The notes under the pieces are model-generated. The model was not told where the DNA came from. It ran no database searches and worked only from the letters and a program-made list of their open reading frames with translations. Both the position numbers and the translations under genes were made by a program. 64,000 nucleotides of DNA from Escherichia coli (GTDB taxonomy: Bacteria; Pseudomonadota; Gammaproteobacteria; Enterobacterales; Enterobacteriaceae): assembly GCF_030384885.1 (NCBI RefSeq), contig NZ_CP128613.1. One strand, given 5' to 3'. Shown here in pieces: positions 16,927 to 57,977 of the stretch. The stretch's first letter is position 1, and each line of letters begins with the position of its first letter.

Positions 16927-18276
16927 TTACCAGCTTACTTTCGCCTCAAATCCACCTTGTTCCGCATTCCCAAACTCAACATTCATGCCATGCAGCTTGG
17001 CGATTCGCTGGACAATTGAAAGCCCAAGTCCACTGCCGGTAGCGGTTTGTCCGGGTGGGCGATAGAAGCGTTCGCCAATTCTCGCCAGTGCCTCTGGTGT
17101 CACTCCGGGGCCGTTATCCCTCACGATGAAATTATCGGCATTCAGCGTGACGTCCACCACGCTACCTTGTGGACTGTAGCGCACGGCGTTATCCAGCAAA
17201 TTTCGCACCAACAAACTTAGCAATAGCGGTTGTCCGGTGCGTTTGATGCCGTGGGCATTGAGTGTCAGTCGCACGTCAATTTTCGCCTGCTGCGCCGTGT
17301 GGTAAATATCCATCACCGACGATTGCAGGAGATCTTCAAGCGGGATCTCCGCGACGTCCTGAAGGTTATCCAGTGAGTCCAGCCGCGATAGCGTGAGCAG
17401 TTGATCAACCAGACGAGTAGCACGATCGATTCCGGAATGTAATTGAAGCAGCGCTTTTTTCCGCGCCTGCGGATCATCGTCAGAGAGCTGCGCAACTTCG
17501 GTTTGCACTTTCAGCGCCGTTAACGGGCTACGAAGTTCGTGAGCTGCGTCGGAGGTAAAGCGTCGTTCACGAACCATCATCGCATGTGTGCGGGCGAACA
17601 GTTGATTCAACGACTCAACCAGTGGACGCACTTCGCTGGGTACGCCCGTCGCGTTTAGTGGTTTTTCCGAGTCAGGGTCACGCATACGTAGTGCCAGCGC
17701 CAGTTTGTTCAGCGGCGCGAGTTCACGACCCAGTAGTACCATCATGATGATTAACATAATCGGCAGTGCGACAAGCCACGGGATCAATTGCCCGGCAACA
17801 ATCGCCAGCGCCATGTCTTCACGGTATTCCCATTCCTGACCAACAACGATGCGATATTTGCCATCTGGTGAGGTCATCCAGACAAAACGCCAGGGATCGT
17901 CTTCACCGACCAGTTGCCCGTCAGCAAAACCTTCCCGCTGATAGCTATAAGGAATATCTTCTCCGTTATCGCCATCGTTAAGGACCATTCTGCCGTCGTG
18001 GGTAAAGATGGCAAAGGTCAGCGCATCGTCATCAACATGACCGTGTTTTAATTTATTTGGCGTCTGTGCCATGCGATCCGCCGCGTTGATTTCGTTGAGA
18101 TCCAGCGTACTTAACCGTTTGGCAAACAGCATCAGTTGGGTGTCGAACAACTCATCGACGTTATCCGTTGTTTGTTTCCAGGCGACAAAGCTGGAAAGCA
18201 GCCAGGTCACCGAGGCCAGAATTAAAAAGATTAGCGTCAGCCTGACTCGCAGACTAAGACGTTGGGTAAATTTCAT
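16927..18276 (-). CDS. qseC: Sensor histidine kinase QseC
   Basis: 449 aa; HAMP domain, H-box (AAHELRSPL) and HATPase domain; overlaps the qseB stop. Confidence 0.94.
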
Positions 18277-18932
18277 TTCTCACCTAATGTGTAGCCAATA
18301 CCATGCACGGTACGAATAAAATCACTACCGAGTTTGCGTCGCAGATGATGCACATGCACTTCAACGGCATTACTGGTGACCTCTTCGTCCCAGGTATACA
18401 GTTTCTCTTCAATCAGTTTGCGCGGCAGTACCCGACCAGCGTTACGCATCAGTAATTCCAGCAGGGCAAATTCTTTTGGTTTCAGCGTTAAGGGTTCGCC
18501 AGCCAGCGTGGCGATACGTTTGCCGGGGTCGAGCATGACGTTGCCGTGGCGCAGCTCGTTGCTGGCCTGGCCGTTGGTTCGGCGCATCAGAGCTTCCAGC
18601 CTGGCGGCGACTTCTATCAACGCAAAAGGTTTACACAGATAATCGTCAGCTCCCAGACGCAGCCCTTCTACACGTTCCGCCAGCGCATCGCGCGCAGTCA
18701 GGATTAATACCGGCTCACGCTGACCTTTTTCTCGCCATTCGCGCAAAATATCGCGACCATCCATGCCCGGTAAGGTTAAATCCAGGATCACCGCATCATA
18801 AGGTGCGCTATATAGCGCCTCTTTTCCCTGACGACCTTGTGTAAACCAGTCGACGCTAAAACCCATTTTACTAAGGCCCGTTTTGATGCCGTCGCCAATC
18901 AGCATGTCATCTTCTATCAGTAAAATTCGCAT
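18273..18932 (-). CDS. qseB: Response regulator QseB (OmpR family)
   Basis: 219 aa, MRILLIEDD... receiver domain plus winged-helix domain. Confidence 0.94.
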
Positions 18933-19083
18933 TTTTTCATCCCTGCGATAACCATATTTGCTGCCAGTAAACCGTGTTGTAACGCGCTCTGTACAGCACT
19001 AAATTTTATTTTTTTCCCTTAAGAAGTTGTTAAGGACTATCTTGTTAAATGCTCGAAAACAGACATTAAAGGGAGTAATAAAC

Positions 19084-19476
19084 ATGAAAAAATTCGCAGC
19101 AGTAATCGCAGTAATGGCCCTGTGCAGTGCACCGGTGATGGCAGCAGAGCAGGGCGGTTTTTCTGGTCCATCGGCAACACAAAGTCAGGCCGGAGGATTC
19201 CAGGGGCCGAATGGCAGCGTAACGACCGTAGAAAGCGCGAAATCCCTGCGTGATGACACTTGGGTCACCCTGCGCGGCAATATCGTTGAACGTATCTCTG
19301 ACGATCTCTACGTGTTCAAAGATGCCAGCGGTACTATCAATGTTGATATCGACCACAAACGCTGGAACGGCGTGACGGTGACCCCGAAAGATACCGTTGA
19401 GATTCAGGGTGAAGTCGATAAAGACTGGAACTCTGTTGAAATTGACGTCAAACAGATCCGCAAAGTAAATCCGTAA
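19084..19476 (+). CDS. ygiW: Periplasmic OB-fold (BOF) stress protein YgiW
   Basis: 130 aa from the internal Met (MKKFAAVIAVMALCSAPVMA signal peptide); divergent from qseBC. Confidence 0.9.
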   Translation: MKKFAAVIAVMALCSAPVMAAEQGGFSGPSATQSQAGGFQGPNGSVTTVESAKSLRDDTWVTLRGNIVERISDDLYVFKDASGTINVDIDHKRWNGVTVTPKDTVEIQGEVDKDWNSVEIDVKQIRKVNP

Positions 19477-19477
19477 T

Positions 19478-19512
19478 TGTTAGCGCTCCCGGGACACGTT
19501 CCCGGGAATAAT
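19478..19512 (+). terminator. Hairpin terminator downstream of ygiW
   Basis: tcccgggacacgttcccggga palindrome followed by an A/T-rich tract. Coordinates by eye. Confidence 0.45.
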
Positions 19513-19528
19513 TTCGCAGGGAGGCAAA

Positions 19529-20011
19529 ATGAAAGACCTGACACTGGATGTAAATATTATCGATTTCCCATCAATCCCTGTGGCGATGTTGCCACATCGC
19601 TGTAGCCCTGAATTGCTCAACTACAGCGTGGCGAAATTTATCATGTGGCGTAAAGAAACGGGGCTTTCTCCTGTTAACCAAAGCCAGACTTTTGGTGTCG
19701 CCTGGGACGACCCTGCCACCACCGTACCGGAAGCGTTTCGCTTTGATATCTGCGGCAGCGTTAACGAACCGATTCCCGATAATCGTTATGGCGTGAGTAA
19801 TGGTGAACTTACCGGTGGACGTTATGCCGTGGCCCGCCACGTTGGCGAGCTGGACGATATTTCACATACGGTATGGGGCATCATTCGCCACTGGCTGCCT
19901 GCAAGCGGCGAGAAAATGCGTAAAGCACCGATTCTGTTTCACTACACCAATCTTGCCGAAGGGGTAACAGAGCAGCGACTGGAAACGGATGTTTATGTGC
20001 CGTTGGCGTGA
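19529..20011 (+). CDS. ygiV: GyrI-like effector-binding domain regulator YgiV
   Basis: 160 aa; good RBS (gggagg); synteny. Confidence 0.88.
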   Translation: MKDLTLDVNIIDFPSIPVAMLPHRCSPELLNYSVAKFIMWRKETGLSPVNQSQTFGVAWDDPATTVPEAFRFDICGSVNEPIPDNRYGVSNGELTGGRYAVARHVGELDDISHTVWGIIRHWLPASGEKMRKAPILFHYTNLAEGVTEQRLETDVYVPLA

Positions 20012-20119
20012 TGAAGAATCTTTACCGGAGTGTGAGCCAAATCACTCGCGATAAGTTTGAGCGAACAATGCCACAGGCGTATTGTTGTTGGGCTTATAAT
20101 TTCTCCGGTAAGGAATACC

Positions 20120-21727
20120 ATGTATACGCGAAATTTATTATGGCTGGTCAGCCTGGTAAGTGCGGCTCCTCTCTACGCTGCTGACGTTCCCGCCAACACA
20201 CCGCTCGCCCCGCAACAAGTCTTTCGTTACAACAATCATAGCGACCCAGGTACGCTCGACCCGCAAAAGGTGGAGGAGAATACTGCCGCGCAGATTGTGC
20301 TGGATCTGTTTGAAGGTCTGGTATGGATGGACGGTGAAGGCCAGGTGCAGCCCGCTCAGGCTGAACGCTGGGAGATACTGGACGGCGGCAAGCGCTATAT
20401 TTTTCATCTGCGTAGCGGTTTGCAGTGGTCAGACGGTCAGCCTCTGACGGCAGAGGATTTTGTCCTCGGCTGGCAGCGCGCGGTTGACCCGAAAATGGCA
20501 AGCCCTTTTGCTGGCTATCTGGCACAGGCGCACATTAACAATGCCGCGGCTATTGTTGCGGGTAAAGCAGATGTTACATCGCTGGGTGTCAAAGCGATGG
20601 ATGATCGTACTATTGAAGTTACGCTTGAGCAGCCGGTTCCTTGGTTCACGACGATGCTCGCCTGGCCGACGCTGTTCCCGGTTCCCCATCATGTAATCGC
20701 GAAATATGGCGATAGCTGGAGTAAGCCTGCGCATATGGTTTACAACGGTGCCTTTGTGCTTGATAAATGGGTAGTTAACGAAAAGATTACTGCACGCAAA
20801 AATCCAAAGTACCGCGATGCGCAACATACGGTATTGCAACAGGTTGAGTATCTGGCGCTGGATAATTCGGTCACCGGCTATAACCGCTATCGCGCGGGAG
20901 AGGTCGATCTCACCTGGGTTCCGGCGCAGCAAATTCCTGCCATTGAAAAATCACTGCCTGGCGAGCTACGAATTATCCCGCGTCTGAACAGCGAATATTA
21001 CAACTTTAACCTTGAGAAACCGCCATTTAACGATGTGCGGGTGCGTCGGGCGCTATATCTTACGGTTGATCGACAGCTTATTGCGCAAAAGGTACTGGGG
21101 TTGAGAACGCCCGCAACCACGCTGACGCCGCCAGAGGTAAAAGGCTTTAGCGCGACGACGTTCGATGAACTGCAAAAGCCAATGAGTGAGCGTGTCGCGA
21201 TGGCAAAAGCCTTGCTGAAACAGGCGGGATACGACGCCTCTCATCCGCTACGCTTTGAGCTGTTCTACAACAAGTACGATCTGCATGAAAAAACCGCGAT
21301 AGCGTTGTCTTCCGAATGGAAAAAATGGCTGGGTGCACAGGTGACGCTGCGCACAATGGAGTGGAAAACCTATCTTGATGCCCGACGAACCGGTGATTTC
21401 ATGCTGTCTCGGCAGTCGTGGGATGCGACGTACAATGATGCTTCCAGCTTTCTGAACACGCTCAAAAGCGATAGTGAAGAAAACGTCGGTCACTGGAAAA
21501 ATGCGCAGTATGACGCCTTACTAAACCAGGCCACGCAGATCACTAATGCGACAAAGCGTAATGCGTTGTATCAGCAGGCAGAAGTGATCATCAACCAGCA
21601 GGCACCGCTGATTCCTATCTACTATCAGCCGTTAATCAAACTGCTTAAACCCTACGTTGGCGGTTTTCCGCTGCATAATCCGCAGGATTATGTCTACAGC
21701 AAAGAGTTGTATATCAAGGCACATTGA
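20120..21727 (+). CDS. ygiS: Periplasmic solute-binding protein YgiS (SBP family 5, oligopeptide-type)
   Basis: 535 aa from the internal Met (MYTRNLLWLVSLVSAAPLYA signal peptide). Only about 108 bp separate it from ygiV. Confidence 0.9.
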   Translation: MYTRNLLWLVSLVSAAPLYAADVPANTPLAPQQVFRYNNHSDPGTLDPQKVEENTAAQIVLDLFEGLVWMDGEGQVQPAQAERWEILDGGKRYIFHLRSGLQWSDGQPLTAEDFVLGWQRAVDPKMASPFAGYLAQAHINNAAAIVAGKADVTSLGVKAMDDRTIEVTLEQPVPWFTTMLAWPTLFPVPHHVIAKYGDSWSKPAHMVYNGAFVLDKWVVNEKITARKNPKYRDAQHTVLQQVEYLALDNSVTGYNRYRAGEVDLTWVPAQQIPAIEKSLPGELRIIPRLNSEYYNFNLEKPPFNDVRVRRALYLTVDRQLIAQKVLGLRTPATTLTPPEVKGFSATTFDELQKPMSERVAMAKALLKQAGYDASHPLRFELFYNKYDLHEKTAIALSSEWKKWLGAQVTLRTMEWKTYLDARRTGDFMLSRQSWDATYNDASSFLNTLKSDSEENVGHWKNAQYDALLNQATQITNATKRNALYQQAEVIINQQAPLIPIYYQPLIKLLKPYVGGFPLHNPQDYVYSKELYIKAH

Positions 21728-21864
21728 TGCCTTTATCGCCGTCGGAGCACGTCCGGCGGCGCTATTCACGCTGATCTCCTGTGACTCGACGCGGCAGATA
21801 ATGTAGTATCTCCGGCAATATTGCCCCTTTGAAGGCTGGCGAATAAGTTGAGGAATCAGAATTA

Positions 21865-24123
21865 ATGAGCGATATGGCAGAGCGCCTTGCGCTACATGAA
21901 TTTACGGAAAACGCCTACTTAAACTACTCCATGTACGTAATCATGGACCGTGCGTTGCCGTTTATTGGTGATGGTCTGAAACCTGTTCAGCGCCGCATTG
22001 TGTATGCGATGTCTGAACTGGGACTAAATGCCAGCGCCAAATTTAAAAAATCGGCCCGTACCGTCGGTGACGTACTGGGTAAATACCATCCGCACGGTGA
22101 TAGCGCCTGTTATGAAGCGATGGTCCTGATGGCACAGCCGTTCTCTTACCGTTATCCGCTGGTTGATGGTCAGGGGAACTGGGGCGCACCGGACGATCCG
22201 AAATCGTTCGCGGCGATGCGTTACACCGAATCCCGGTTGTCGAAATATTCCGAGCTGCTATTGAGCGAGCTGGGGCAGGGTACGGCTGACTGGGTGCCAA
22301 ACTTCGACGGTACTTTGCAGGAGCCGAAAATGCTACCTGCCCGTTTGCCGAACATTTTGCTTAACGGCACCACCGGTATTGCCGTCGGTATGGCGACCGA
22401 TATTCCACCGCATAACCTGCGTGAAGTGGCTCAGGCAGCAATCGCGTTAATCGACCAGCCGAAAACCACGCTCGACCAGCTGCTGGATATCGTGCAGGGG
22501 CCGGATTATCCGACCGAAGCGGAAATCATCACCTCGCGTGCCGAGATCCGTAAAATCTACGAAAATGGTCGCGGTTCTGTGCGTATGCGCGCGGTGTGGA
22601 AGAAAGAAGACGGTGCGGTGGTTATCAGCGCATTGCCGCATCAGGTTTCTGGTGCGCGCGTACTGGAGCAAATTGCTGCGCAAATGCGCAACAAAAAGCT
22701 GCCGATGGTTGACGATCTGCGCGATGAGTCTGACCACGAGAACCCGACCCGTCTGGTGATTGTGCCGCGTTCCAACCGCGTGGATATGGATCAGGTGATG
22801 AATCACCTTTTCGCCACCACCGATCTGGAAAAGAGCTATCGTATTAACCTTAATATGATCGGTCTGGATGGCCGTCCGGCGGTGAAAAACCTGCTGGAAA
22901 TCCTCTCCGAATGGCTGGTGTTCCGCCGCGATACCGTACGCCGCCGACTGAACTATCGTCTGGAGAAAGTCCTCAAGCGCCTGCATATCCTCGAAGGTTT
23001 GCTGGTGGCGTTTCTCAATATCGACGAAGTGATTGAGATCATTCGCAATGAAGATGAACCGAAACCGGCGCTGATGTCGCGGTTTGGCCTCACGGAAACT
23101 CAGGCGGAAGCGATCCTCGAACTGAAACTGCGTCATCTCGCCAAACTGGAAGAGATGAAGATTCGCGGTGAGCAGAGTGAGCTGGAAAAAGAGCGCGACC
23201 AGTTGCAAGGCATTCTGGCGTCCGAGCGTAAAATGAATAACCTGCTGAAGAAAGAACTGCAGGCAGACGCGCAAGCCTATGGTGACGATCGTCGTTCGCC
23301 GTTGCAGGAACGCGAAGAAGCGAAAGCGATGAGCGAGCACGACATGCTGCCGTCGGAACCCGTCACCATTGTGCTGTCGCAGATGGGCTGGGTACGCAGC
23401 GCTAAAGGCCATGACATCGACGCGCCGGGCCTGAATTATAAAGCGGGTGATAGCTTCAAAGCGGCGGTGAAAGGCAAGAGTAACCAACCGGTAGTGTTTG
23501 TTGATTCCACCGGTCGTAGCTATGCCATCGACCCGATTACGCTGCCGTCGGCGCGTGGTCAGGGCGAACCGCTCACCGGCAAATTAACGTTGCCGCCTGG
23601 GGCGACCGTTGACCATATGCTGATGGAAAGCGACGATCAGAAACTGCTGATGGCTTCCGATGCGGGTTACGGTTTCGTCTGTACCTTTAACGATCTGGTG
23701 GCGCGTAACCGTGCCGGTAAGGCTTTGATCACCTTACCGGAAAATGCCCATGTTATGCCGCCGGTGGTGATTGAAGATGCTTCCGATATGCTGCTGGCAA
23801 TCACTCAGGCAGGCCGTATGTTGATGTTCCCGGTAAGCGATCTGCCGCAGCTGTCGAAGGGCAAAGGCAACAAGATTATCAACATTCCGTCGGCAGAAGC
23901 CGCGCGTGGCGAGGATGGTCTGGCGCAACTGTACGTTCTGCCGCCGCAAAGCACGCTGACCATTCATGTTGGGAAACGCAAAATTAAACTGCGTCCGGAA
24001 GAGCTACAGAAAGTCACTGGCGAACGTGGACGCCGCGGTACGTTGATGCGCGGTTTGCAGCGTATCGATCGAGTCGAGATCGACTCTCCTCGCCGCGCCA
24101 GCAGCGGCGATAGCGAAGAGTAG
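21865..24123 (+). CDS. parC: DNA topoisomerase IV subunit A ParC
   Basis: 752 aa; GyrA/ParC N-terminal domain motifs. Confidence 0.96.
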
Positions 24124-26581: not shown

Positions 26582-26631
26582 TGGACCAATTCAATGCCCC
26601 ACAGAGTGGTGGGGCGATACAAGGATGAATC

Positions 26632-28056
26632 ATGGATGGCATGGGATGGATGATTATTTTGGTACTTCCCTTTCTTTGGATGGGCTATGGACTGGCGTTG
26701 TTAATCATAACGGGGTGCGCTTTTGAATCTAAGAGGATTCGTCGCGTTCTGCTATGGGGTGTTGCGCCCCAGTTTATTATTCTTTGTATTACGACCTTAT
26801 TGCTTTATTGGATTAACTCTCGGTTAATTTATGTTTTTGTCTTTTTTCAGCCGGTTTTATGCATCACTACGGCAATTTTTTTGTTTGCTGGTAAAAAAAC
26901 ACAATATTCCAGATTGCTGTTTACTCTGTCTCATGTGATTTTTCTCGCTGGAGTTTTATATCAGGGGCATAGGGAAAATCTGCAACACATAATTAATAGC
27001 GACTGGAAGGAATATAAAATAACGCGTTTATTTGAGCAAGTGCAGGACAATGGAGCGCATGCGCTGAATAACGATGTAACTTGTTCAGAATTAATGCAAC
27101 TACTCACCCTGGCAGCGGAACGTGATGACGTCAAAGAAGAGACGTTACGTACTCTTATTGCAAAGAGAGTATCGCCATTTCTGACAATGTCAGATAACTG
27201 TACGGGTGAGGATTCAGTAGAGATTTATTCTGTAGATACTACACCTTTTATGGCGGCTATTCAGAATCATAATATACATTCTGTTCGTTTTTTTAGTCAA
27301 TTGCTTATGGGAAACTCACCAAAAGCAAAAAATAATCGTGACATTGTGCGCCGGGCAAACCCTTTGATCGAAGTGTATAAATATAGTCATGGTTCAAAAA
27401 AACAACGTAACTCAGGGTTAGAAATAAGTAAGCAATTAATCGCTATTATGCCAGAACTATTAACAGATGCCGTCTGGCGTGCCGTGCTCAATGTATATGA
27501 TGCCGATGCAGCACGATGGTTCTGGCGTAAGCAACCACCAGAAAATCGGTTGTATCGCTTAAAGGCTATGGCATTAATACCACAAACAGATGCGCTGTTG
27601 GCAGAGATTCGACATACTCCAGAGGTACTGAATATCTCGTCTGAGGGGGACCTGAATGAAGAGGAGTTTCTCCATTTCTTAATTTATGGAGGAGATACCG
27701 CTGTAATACATGCACTGGTTGAAAAAGGAATAGTTAACTGGCAGCACCTTATGAACATTGAGGGGTTTGATAAGGACCCCTTAATATGGTCTATTTCAAA
27801 ACTGGGAGAAAACGACAATGACCGGGAGGTTTTGGCATTAATTATTCATGATATTAATGCGCAAAACGCACTGCCGGAGGAACGCATTGCCAAATATTTA
27901 ACGTGGACGGGAGCAATGGGCGAGATTTTTTTAAAGGCGGGCGTACATTGTGATAAGTTATATGCGGCAATTGAGTCCGACAAAAAGCGAAATAATGGCA
28001 TGTATAGTCAAAACGCCAGGGAAGAAGTGGATCGCGTATGTACGCCCACAAAATAG
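26632..28056 (+). CDS. Accessory membrane-anchored ankyrin-repeat protein (about 4 N-terminal TM helices plus a roughly 370-aa soluble domain); function unknown
   Basis: 474-aa ORF; RBS aagga 6 nt upstream of the ATG. Hydrophobic segments at roughly residues 6-30, 39-62, 65-86 and 95-110. C-terminal ankyrin-like repeats (EFLHFLIYGGDTAVIHALVEKGIVNWQ; DPLIWSISKLGEN...VLALIIHDINAQNA). Markedly AT-rich by eye. Not part of the K-12 ftsP-ygiQ junction as I recall it. Confidence 0.75.
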   Translation: MDGMGWMIILVLPFLWMGYGLALLIITGCAFESKRIRRVLLWGVAPQFIILCITTLLLYWINSRLIYVFVFFQPVLCITTAIFLFAGKKTQYSRLLFTLSHVIFLAGVLYQGHRENLQHIINSDWKEYKITRLFEQVQDNGAHALNNDVTCSELMQLLTLAAERDDVKEETLRTLIAKRVSPFLTMSDNCTGEDSVEIYSVDTTPFMAAIQNHNIHSVRFFSQLLMGNSPKAKNNRDIVRRANPLIEVYKYSHGSKKQRNSGLEISKQLIAIMPELLTDAVWRAVLNVYDADAARWFWRKQPPENRLYRLKAMALIPQTDALLAEIRHTPEVLNISSEGDLNEEEFLHFLIYGGDTAVIHALVEKGIVNWQHLMNIEGFDKDPLIWSISKLGENDNDREVLALIIHDINAQNALPEERIAKYLTWTGAMGEIFLKAGVHCDKLYAAIESDKKRNNGMYSQNAREEVDRVCTPTK

Positions 28057-28185
28057 GAGCAGTTTGGGGCGGTTAAGGGATAAAAAATAAATGCCTTTCG
28101 CTATCTGTCAGGGCGAATCTCACCATTTGCTATACCTTCCATTGGCGATGAACAGTATTCTACCCGCACTTTTTTTACGATTGCG

Positions 28186-28992
28186 TTGAAGCATTACAAC
28201 GCCCGCGCCATCCGCGCGTTTAGCCGCTTTCTGCAAGGAAATTCCTCAAAAGCGCAGGAATATCGCGCGATTGTTCATCAAAAAAATCCACTGCAGCAGA
28301 TGTACCGGGGAATAAGTTTGCCAATTCGTTTTAGTGAAGAAGAGATCGCCCGCCACATTGTTGCCGCTCGCGAGATAAGCCTCACCTTGCTGCCCCTGAT
28401 GCCAGAATTATTAAACGAAGAGGCGTATGCAAATGTCATTGATGCTAATGACAGCGCAACGCTGAAGGCTTTTTGGCAGATCCAGCTGCCGCCCACGCCG
28501 GTTTTACGCCTGGAAGCGATGTCGGTAATTCCCATGACAGCGGCACTGGTTCAACAGGTGAGGGAGTCACCAAAGCGGCTTGAACTGGAAGATAAAAGTG
28601 GCAGGACAGTACTAACTTACATCGTGCGCTTTGGGAATATTGCCGCAGTACAGGCACTGATTGACGCTAATCTGATCGACTGGCAACGGCTCCGCCAATC
28701 GACAGGAAGGTCAACACCATTATTACTGGCGATCTGGCGACAAAAATACGACGATGATTATGTAATCTTCCCATTGATTTTAAAGGACATGCTGGCAAAA
28801 AATGCGCCACCCTCAGCAGAGGAAATAATGAACTGCATTAAGGATGGTATGACCGCAGATGATTTTTTATCTGCCGGAATGAGCAACACGCAATTCTGTT
28901 CTGCGATTGAACAAAGCCTCCAGGCGAAAACGTCAGTATTACCGGCGAATCGATTACGCCATCTGCAATCCTCGCGGTGTGCAAAGCTGTAA
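28186..28992 (+). CDS. 5'-truncated paralog of the preceding ankyrin-repeat protein (soluble domain only); may be a gene remnant or pseudogene
   Basis: 268-aa ORF starting at a TTG with no obvious RBS. Aligns along its whole length to residues about 205-460 of the upstream protein (RAFSRFLQGNSSKAQ vs RFFSQLLMGNSPKAK; VLRLEAMSVIPMTAALVQQVRESPK vs RLYRLKAMALIPQTDALLAEIRHTPE; GRTVLTYIVRFGNIAAVQALIDANLIDWQ vs EEFLHFLIYGGDTAVIHALVEKGIVNWQ). In-frame homology continues upstream of the TTG back to a stop at about 28081. Confidence 0.55.
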   Translation: MKHYNARAIRAFSRFLQGNSSKAQEYRAIVHQKNPLQQMYRGISLPIRFSEEEIARHIVAAREISLTLLPLMPELLNEEAYANVIDANDSATLKAFWQIQLPPTPVLRLEAMSVIPMTAALVQQVRESPKRLELEDKSGRTVLTYIVRFGNIAAVQALIDANLIDWQRLRQSTGRSTPLLLAIWRQKYDDDYVIFPLILKDMLAKNAPPSAEEIMNCIKDGMTADDFLSAGMSNTQFCSAIEQSLQAKTSVLPANRLRHLQSSRCAKL

Positions 28993-29107
28993 CCAACCGG
29001 AAGTTAAGTCATCCGCTGAAAACATCGCATTAACTTTTCGATTTCTCTTTCGTTCCGGCTTATAATCCCCGGCCTTTGATTATTTTTTTATCATTTCTGG
29101 AAGCAAA

Positions 29108-57173: not shown

Positions 57174-57932
57174 ATGGATGCACTACAAACACAAACTGTT
57201 AATAGTACAACCGCGCCGCAGCCCAACTACATTCCGGGGCTGATTGCGGTGGTCGGGTGTGATGGCACCGGTAAATCCACACTGACCACTGACCTGGTGA
57301 AATCGCTGCAACAACACTGGCAAACCGAGCGCCGCTATCTGGGGCTGCTCTCCGGCGAAGACGGCGACAAAATCAAACGGTTGCCGCTCGTTGGCGTCTG
57401 GCTGGAACGGCGACTGGCGGCCAAATCCTCGAAAACCCAAAGCATGAAAACCAAATCTCCGGCGCTATGGGCGGCGGTGATTATGTACTGCTTCTCGCTG
57501 CGAAGAATGGTGAATCTACGCAAGGTTCAGCGACTGGCGCAAAGTGGCGTTCTGGTGGTCAGCGATCGCTTCCCGCAGGCTGAAATTTCGGGCTTTTATT
57601 ATGACGGACCGGGGATTGGCGTCGAGCGTGCGACCGGGAAAATCAGCATGTTTCTGGCACAGCGCGAACGGCGTTTATACCAAAAAATGGCGCAATACCG
57701 TCCTGAATTAATTATTCGTTTGGGGATTGATATTGATACTGCCATCTCCCGCAAGCCTGACCATGACTATGCCGAGCTGCAGGACAAAATCGGTGTCATG
57801 TCGACGATTGGCTATAACGGCACAAAAATTCTTGAGATTGATTCCAGAGCGCCCTACAGCGAAGTGCTGGAACAGGCACAGAAGGCGGTTTCTCTGGTTG
57901 CAATCGTTTCTGACCGCCGAAGTTTAACTTAA
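57174..57932 (+). CDS. yghR: P-loop ATP-binding protein YghR
   Basis: 252 aa; Walker A GCDGTGKST. Confidence 0.9.
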   Translation: MDALQTQTVNSTTAPQPNYIPGLIAVVGCDGTGKSTLTTDLVKSLQQHWQTERRYLGLLSGEDGDKIKRLPLVGVWLERRLAAKSSKTQSMKTKSPALWAAVIMYCFSLRRMVNLRKVQRLAQSGVLVVSDRFPQAEISGFYYDGPGIGVERATGKISMFLAQRERRLYQKMAQYRPELIIRLGIDIDTAISRKPDHDYAELQDKIGVMSTIGYNGTKILEIDSRAPYSEVLEQAQKAVSLVAIVSDRRSLT

Positions 57933-57977
57933 GGTTGGCGGGATACTTTTTACTATCAACGATAAGGTCAGGCTGAA

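Follow-up and report, generated by a model that had tools for sequence, protein, structure and literature searches.

An mqsRA-free ygiV-ygiS junction in Escherichia coli, very probably the ancestral and never-occupied allele of a site that carries the toxin-antitoxin cassette in other lineages

Chromosomal toxin-antitoxin (TA) systems of type II in Escherichia coli form part of the accessory genome and are distributed unevenly across phylogroups, and no such system is common to the strains MG1655, W, EDL933 and UTI89 (reviewed in PMC7167474). The same review cites Fiedoruk 2015 and Ramisetty & Santhosh 2016 for this uneven distribution and for horizontal transfer. For the mqsRA pair in particular, no MqsRA homologue was found in the AIEC strain NRG857c (PMC7232551), 42 of 88 UTI isolates were PCR-positive for mqsRA (PMC11059956), and mqsR, mqsA and ygiS are all variable in a mastitis pan-genome, with mqsR/mqsA frequencies of 0.27 versus 0.64 (PMC11390585). 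Published work has already documented that E. coli strains differ in whether they carry mqsRA, and the locus described here is one more instance of it; compared with the published accessory chromosomal type II TA systems, among which mqsRA is variably present, we see no difference. What we did not find spelled out in the mqsRA literature, taking Fiedoruk 2015 and Ramisetty & Santhosh 2016 as they are cited in PMC7167474, is the exact junction at which the pair is present or absent, the three-allele structure of the site and its polarity as read from outgroups.

The closest described locus is ygiV-mqsR-mqsA-ygiS of K-12 (b3020-b3023). In K-12-type genomes the order, all on one strand, is ygiV, 204 bp of spacer, mqsR (98 aa), mqsA (131 aa), a further 132 bp and then ygiS. 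The same ygiV-mqsR and mqsA-ygiS spacings are tabulated in PMC5120126, in agreement with the initial annotation of the DNA studied here, which placed mqsRA between ygiV and ygiS in K-12. We used BM28 as the K-12-type reference, and records of K-12 MG1655 were among the cassette and junction matches. The mqsRA segment (3615-4541 of the extracted K-12-type locus) is a self-contained cassette of 927 bp comprising a promoter, mqsR, mqsA and a terminator, a hairpin with a T-run at its end, and its promoter holds two TAACCTTTTAGGT MqsA operators (repeat D2 of the K-12-like locus). The GC content of the cassette is 41.1%, as against 52-55% in the flanking genes.

We examined the corresponding interval in a 64-kb stretch of E. 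coli DNA (contig NZ_CP128613.1), the whole of which is referred to below as the window. The gene order there is qseC and qseB on the minus strand followed by ygiW, ygiV, ygiS and parC, all four on the plus strand. The features of the locus are as follows.

19084-19476, plus strand: ygiW, encoding an OB-fold stress protein, the upstream neighbour (RefSeq annotation of NZ_CP027579.1)
19529-20011, plus strand: ygiV, 160 aa, GyrI-like (open reading frame list; Pfam PF06445, E = 2e-36; annotation)
20012-20119, no strand: ygiV-ygiS spacer, the unoccupied mqsRA site (sequence; collinear with other empty alleles)
20014-20018, plus strand: pentamer AAGAA (alignment of the window with K-12-like BM28 and with 103605; boundaries rechecked)
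20019-20113, plus strand: long imperfect inverted repeat or RNA hairpin (inverted repeat I4 of the K-12-like locus; RNA fold)
20120-21727, plus strand: ygiS, 535 aa, periplasmic family-5 solute-binding protein (SBP_bac_5, PF00496, E = 1e-82; annotation)
21865-24123, plus strand: parC, the conserved downstream anchor of the locus (annotation)

The ygiV stop codon, a TGA at 20009-20011, and the ygiS ATG at 20120, which lies 7 nt past an AAGGAA Shine-Dalgarno sequence, are separated by exactly 108 bp, the figure that had been given as approximate in the initial annotation. As also stated there, this leaves no room for mqsR or mqsA: the spacer is too short for any gene, the 396 nt of mqsA included. 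Two open reading frames touch it (58 aa on the plus strand and 42 aa on the minus strand); both overlap the flanking genes and neither matches a Pfam family. The ygiS gene itself is intact and has the same length as K-12 ygiS.

MqsA consists of a zinc-binding N-terminal domain and an HTH-XRE C-terminal domain, and its gene lies directly downstream of the toxin gene. Searching the 64-kb window by tblastn, we obtained only chance-level matches to the MqsR toxin (about 98 aa, PF15723, MqsR_toxin; best E = 1.5, over 7 aa) and to the MqsA antitoxin (131 aa, PF15731; best E = 1.6), none of them at the locus, and the positive controls for the two Pfam families returned E values of 5.5e-35 for MqsR and 7e-56 for MqsA. 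A blastn search of the window with the 927-bp cassette at word size 7 likewise gave matches at chance level, with none at 20012-20119 and no scar; the best E values of the tblastn and cassette searches together range from about 0.6 to 1.6. No MqsA operator motif (ACCT-N2-4-AGGT) is found near the locus, and the two matches in the 64-kb window, at 2936 and 16239, are a chance-level count (mean 1.37). The strain thus does not carry mqsRA at the K-12 position, as had been proposed.

Alignment with the K-12-type sequence reduces this absence to one clean difference of 927 nt versus 5 nt. The cassette stands, two bases past the end of ygiV, in place of a pentamer that reads AAGAA in the window and GGGAA in other empty alleles. 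The window accordingly runs GGCGTGATG AAGAA TCTTTACCGGAG and K-12 runs GGCGTGATG, 927 nt, TCTTTACCGGAG, and the flanks are identical in register (GTGATG, then 5 nt or 927 nt, then TCTTTACCGG). Apart from the cassette in the one and AAGAA in the other, the two loci have the same flanking genes, arranged and oriented alike, and agree in the final bases of ygiV and throughout the ygiS leader, with 100% identity over the 101 nt that precede ygiS. Neither a target-site duplication nor terminal inverted repeats were found where the K-12 cassette ends, and no integrase adjoins it; the only repeats in the K-12-like locus are the internal operator repeats and the inverted repeat of the ygiS leader.

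A short spacer could in principle be produced by an assembly collapse or a mis-join, an explanation for which there is no specific support and to which we give almost no credence. Over 64 kb the window has 99.98% identity to a complete genome of independent origin, that of E. coli 2013C-4282 (NZ_CP027579.1, 4308853-4372852), which was isolated from human stool in the USA; the differences amount to 9 mismatches and one 1-nt indel, and the RefSeq gene calls of NZ_CP027579.1 agree with the open reading frames of the window. Further, 1754 complete genomes share this empty junction, and it is also kept in the ygiS-deleted allele of strain 103605 and in other Escherichia species. The ygiV allele of the window is rare, differing from that of K-12, O157 and ST131 by T2K, N3D, A66V and S79N (4 aa from K-12 YgiV), and only 6 complete genomes match a 1401-nt query (19400-20800) at 99% identity or more. 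Bovine, goat and human isolates are among the listed members of these six.

We then placed the junction in a sample of 5426 complete E. coli genomes, 5410 of which fall into three alleles.

927-bp mqsRA cassette present: 2299 genomes, 42.4%
Empty junction with intact ygiS 5' end, the state of the window: 1754 genomes, 32.3%
Empty junction with ygiS replaced by filler after codon 7: 1357 genomes, 25.0%

The cassette is missing from 3127 of the 5426 genomes (57.6%). O157:H7 and O25b:H4-ST131, for example, have the empty site with ygiS; these and other empty alleles resemble the window in the 108-bp spacer and the intact ygiS but have GGGAA rather than AAGAA and a commoner ygiV allele. In the third allele, found for instance in O111 strains and represented by E. 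coli 103605 (6742-7005 of its extracted locus, corresponding to the window from 20142 onward), ygiS has lost the stretch between codon 8 and a point close to its end, and about 263-280 nt stand there instead (a filler of 263 nt). The only other match to this filler falls within the gene of a group II intron maturase, and when scanned against Rfam the filler gave no match; on the sequence match, the filler is likely a remnant of a group II intron. Individual departures from the cassette-bearing allele were also seen: E. coli 203740 has an IS1 inside mqsR, and in E. coli H9Ecoli the cassette is reduced to its last 63 nt.

The same sample bears on whether mqsRA, or a divergent MqsR/MqsA pair, has simply moved elsewhere on the chromosome or onto a plasmid of the strain. 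The direct search covered 64 kb of about 5 Mb, and MqsR-family toxins with 60-68% identity are found on plasmids of Rahnella, Rouxiella, Pectobacterium, Burkholderia and others; there is even an E. coli plasmid record (NZ_MG591698.1, 354 kb) with an mqsR that is 99% identical. However, sensitive blastn of the 5426-genome collection found the cassette in just the 2299 carriers, all copies being chromosomal with none on plasmids, and found no divergent copies. The count of extra split-junction places (7728 - 5424 = 2304) matches the 2299 carriers, so that essentially every copy must sit at the ygiV-ygiS site. Because the copies are all chromosomal and the two counts agree, a copy elsewhere in the genome of this strain is unlikely, and we consider a relocation very improbable; within the 64-kb window the absence is a direct observation.

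Whether the empty site was emptied or had never been filled can be read from other species. All empty E. coli alleles examined have the junction TGATG-GGGAA-TCTTTACC, from which the window departs by two G-to-A changes in the pentamer. A seven-sequence alignment, in which the window was compared with O157:H7, ST131, GN02323, Res13, 21AH004 and 103605, is free of gaps across the junction and differs there only in the pentamer (AAGAA versus GGGAA). An outgroup scan with YgiV, using one genome per species, recovered five Escherichia loci (E. albertii NBRC 107761, E. whittamii, Escherichia sp. E1V33, Escherichia sp. MOD1-EC7003 and SCPM-O-B-8794), and in each of them ygiS sequence comes immediately after ygiV, with no match to MqsR or MqsA. 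In three of the five, ygiS is full-length and begins after about 111 bp, and these three can be aligned with the window through the junction; the ygiS of Escherichia sp. MOD1-EC7003 and that of E1V33 carry independent internal deletions. No Salmonella or Citrobacter locus emerged from the YgiV scan, probably since the peptide patterns were those of the unusual YgiV allele of this strain. Given that the cassette ends offer no target-site duplication, terminal repeats or integrase, the polarity is read only from the comparison with these five outgroup loci. As these non-coli Escherichia share the empty junction, the sequence comparison indicates that it is the ancestral Escherichia state and that the mqsRA insertion, found in part of E. 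coli, is derived. Absent here does not mean lost, and to lack the cassette is the majority state of E. coli.

The contrary history, in which an ancestor carried the K-12-type insertion and a later precise deletion removed it, would fit two observations: the ygiV of the window is 97.1-97.3% identical to the mqsRA-positive haplotype versus 94.4-96.5% to other empty alleles, and identity to K-12 is 100% over the 232 nt rightward of the junction. Several empty alleles, however, reach the same 100% over the 101 nt that make up the right half of the spacer. A deletion, moreover, would not recreate an xxGAA pentamer homologous to the GGGAA of all other empty alleles and to the outgroup sequence, the cassette is without flanking direct repeats that might mediate a precise excision, and the window contains no scar. 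Because the pentamer would have to be recreated and no repeats are available for excision, we regard secondary loss as highly unlikely. It could also be that the lineage of the window once had mqsRA and regained an empty allele by homologous recombination.

We therefore favor, with high confidence, the reading that the window retains the ancestral, never-occupied ygiV-ygiS allele and that the cassette was inserted in another E. coli lineage. In this scenario an AT-rich cassette of 927 bp would have replaced 5 nt in one lineage, which includes K-12, B and ATCC 8739, landing at the 5' foot of a hairpin in the ygiS leader, and the lineage of the window strain would never have received it. In the window, ygiS would then simply come after ygiV, its leader and promoter region undisturbed, and neither MqsR nor MqsA would be there to act on it. 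The indel structure, allele frequencies and outgroup state described above are observations; a single horizontal acquisition in E. coli, like the lack of mqsRA in the rest of this genome, is inferred. The cassette is at least 99% identical in 2296 of its 2299 carriers, the other 3 records lying at 95-99%, and the flanking genes differ by 2-5% between lineages; this near-identity, together with the low GC content and the plasmid-borne relatives, fits a recent horizontal acquisition.

The leader hairpin, which takes up most of the spacer, is a feature in its own right. Its predicted fold has a free energy of -43.6 kcal/mol (z = -3.8), and none of 200 shuffled sequences folds as well. The 12-bp outer stem, TCTTTACCGGAG / CTCCGGTAAGGA (also given as UCUUUACCGGAG / CUCCGGUAAGGA), takes in the ygiS Shine-Dalgarno sequence, and the 3' arm contains a TATAAT box. 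E. albertii and E. whittamii preserve the stem, and the changes they show in it are all one-sided; compensatory changes were seen at 0 of 47 pairs across six Escherichia sequences, which vary too little to decide the matter. An Rfam scan of positions 17000-24000 of the window at E values up to 1 matched no RNA family, so the spacer hairpin is not a described element. Between 19000 and 20400, no sigma-70 promoter passed the scan, and a terminator scan returned one weak terminator-like site (20068-20080) at chance level. It is precisely at the 5' foot of the hairpin stem that the K-12 cassette is found. The hairpin may possibly have a role in the control of ygiS translation. A more specific model, which we consider rather doubtful, is that the hairpin acts in cis by hiding the ygiS ribosome-binding site on transcripts that read through from ygiV and freeing it on those that start from the TATAAT box, with its 5' foot serving as the specific integration site of the cassette. 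If this were true, insertion of the TA module would uncouple ygiS from ygiV read-through.

The initial annotation had also called the absence of mqsRA relevant to persistence and biofilm phenotypes, which overstates the case. Fraikin et al. 2019 did not reproduce the persistence, biofilm, stress and global-regulator phenotypes attributed to MqsRA and question the proposed link between MqsR and ygiS (PMC6918082), so the phenotypic significance of the absence is weak. Since mqsRA is accessory, results obtained with K-12 MqsR or MqsA, including the proposed cleavage of the neighbouring ygiS mRNA by MqsR, are not transferable to this strain or to the roughly 58% of sequenced E. coli without the cassette. 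In itself the absence matters little, being the ordinary, ancestral, majority allele at a well-known site of accessory genes. The three-allele scheme with its polarity (empty ancestral; mqsRA and intron remnant derived) may nonetheless be usable as a simple lineage marker.

Finally, the window differs from other genomes at several places away from the ygiV-ygiS locus. At 26582-29107, ftsP and ygiQ, neighbours in other strains, are separated by an insertion of about 2.4 kb with low GC content (38-48% versus about 55% in its flanks). It contains open reading frames at 26632-28056 (474 aa) and 28318-28992 (224 aa), for which we found sub-threshold Pfam matches to ankyrin repeats only and no NCBIfam match. 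Of the 5426 complete E. coli genomes, just 13 carry this insertion at a coverage of at least 80%; it is much rarer than the absence of mqsRA. A chaperone-usher fimbrial operon (fimbrial-like subunit, usher, chaperone and hypothetical tip protein) occupies positions 1-5430 and adjoins zupT; some version of it is found in 994 of the 5426 genomes, and the allele of the window is highly divergent, being at least 99% identical only to that of 2013C-4282, with the next best genome at 90.6%. A cluster at 57174-64000, which we take to be absent from K-12, encodes a predicted LPS biosynthesis protein, a YtfJ-family protein, lptF and lptG paralogues and a serine palmitoyltransferase. Its lptF-like paralogue (60753-61823, 356 aa) is intact in the window and annotated as frameshifted in NZ_CP027579.1, the difference being one G in a G6/G7 run at about 61028-61034 that would reflect either a sequencing error or slippage.
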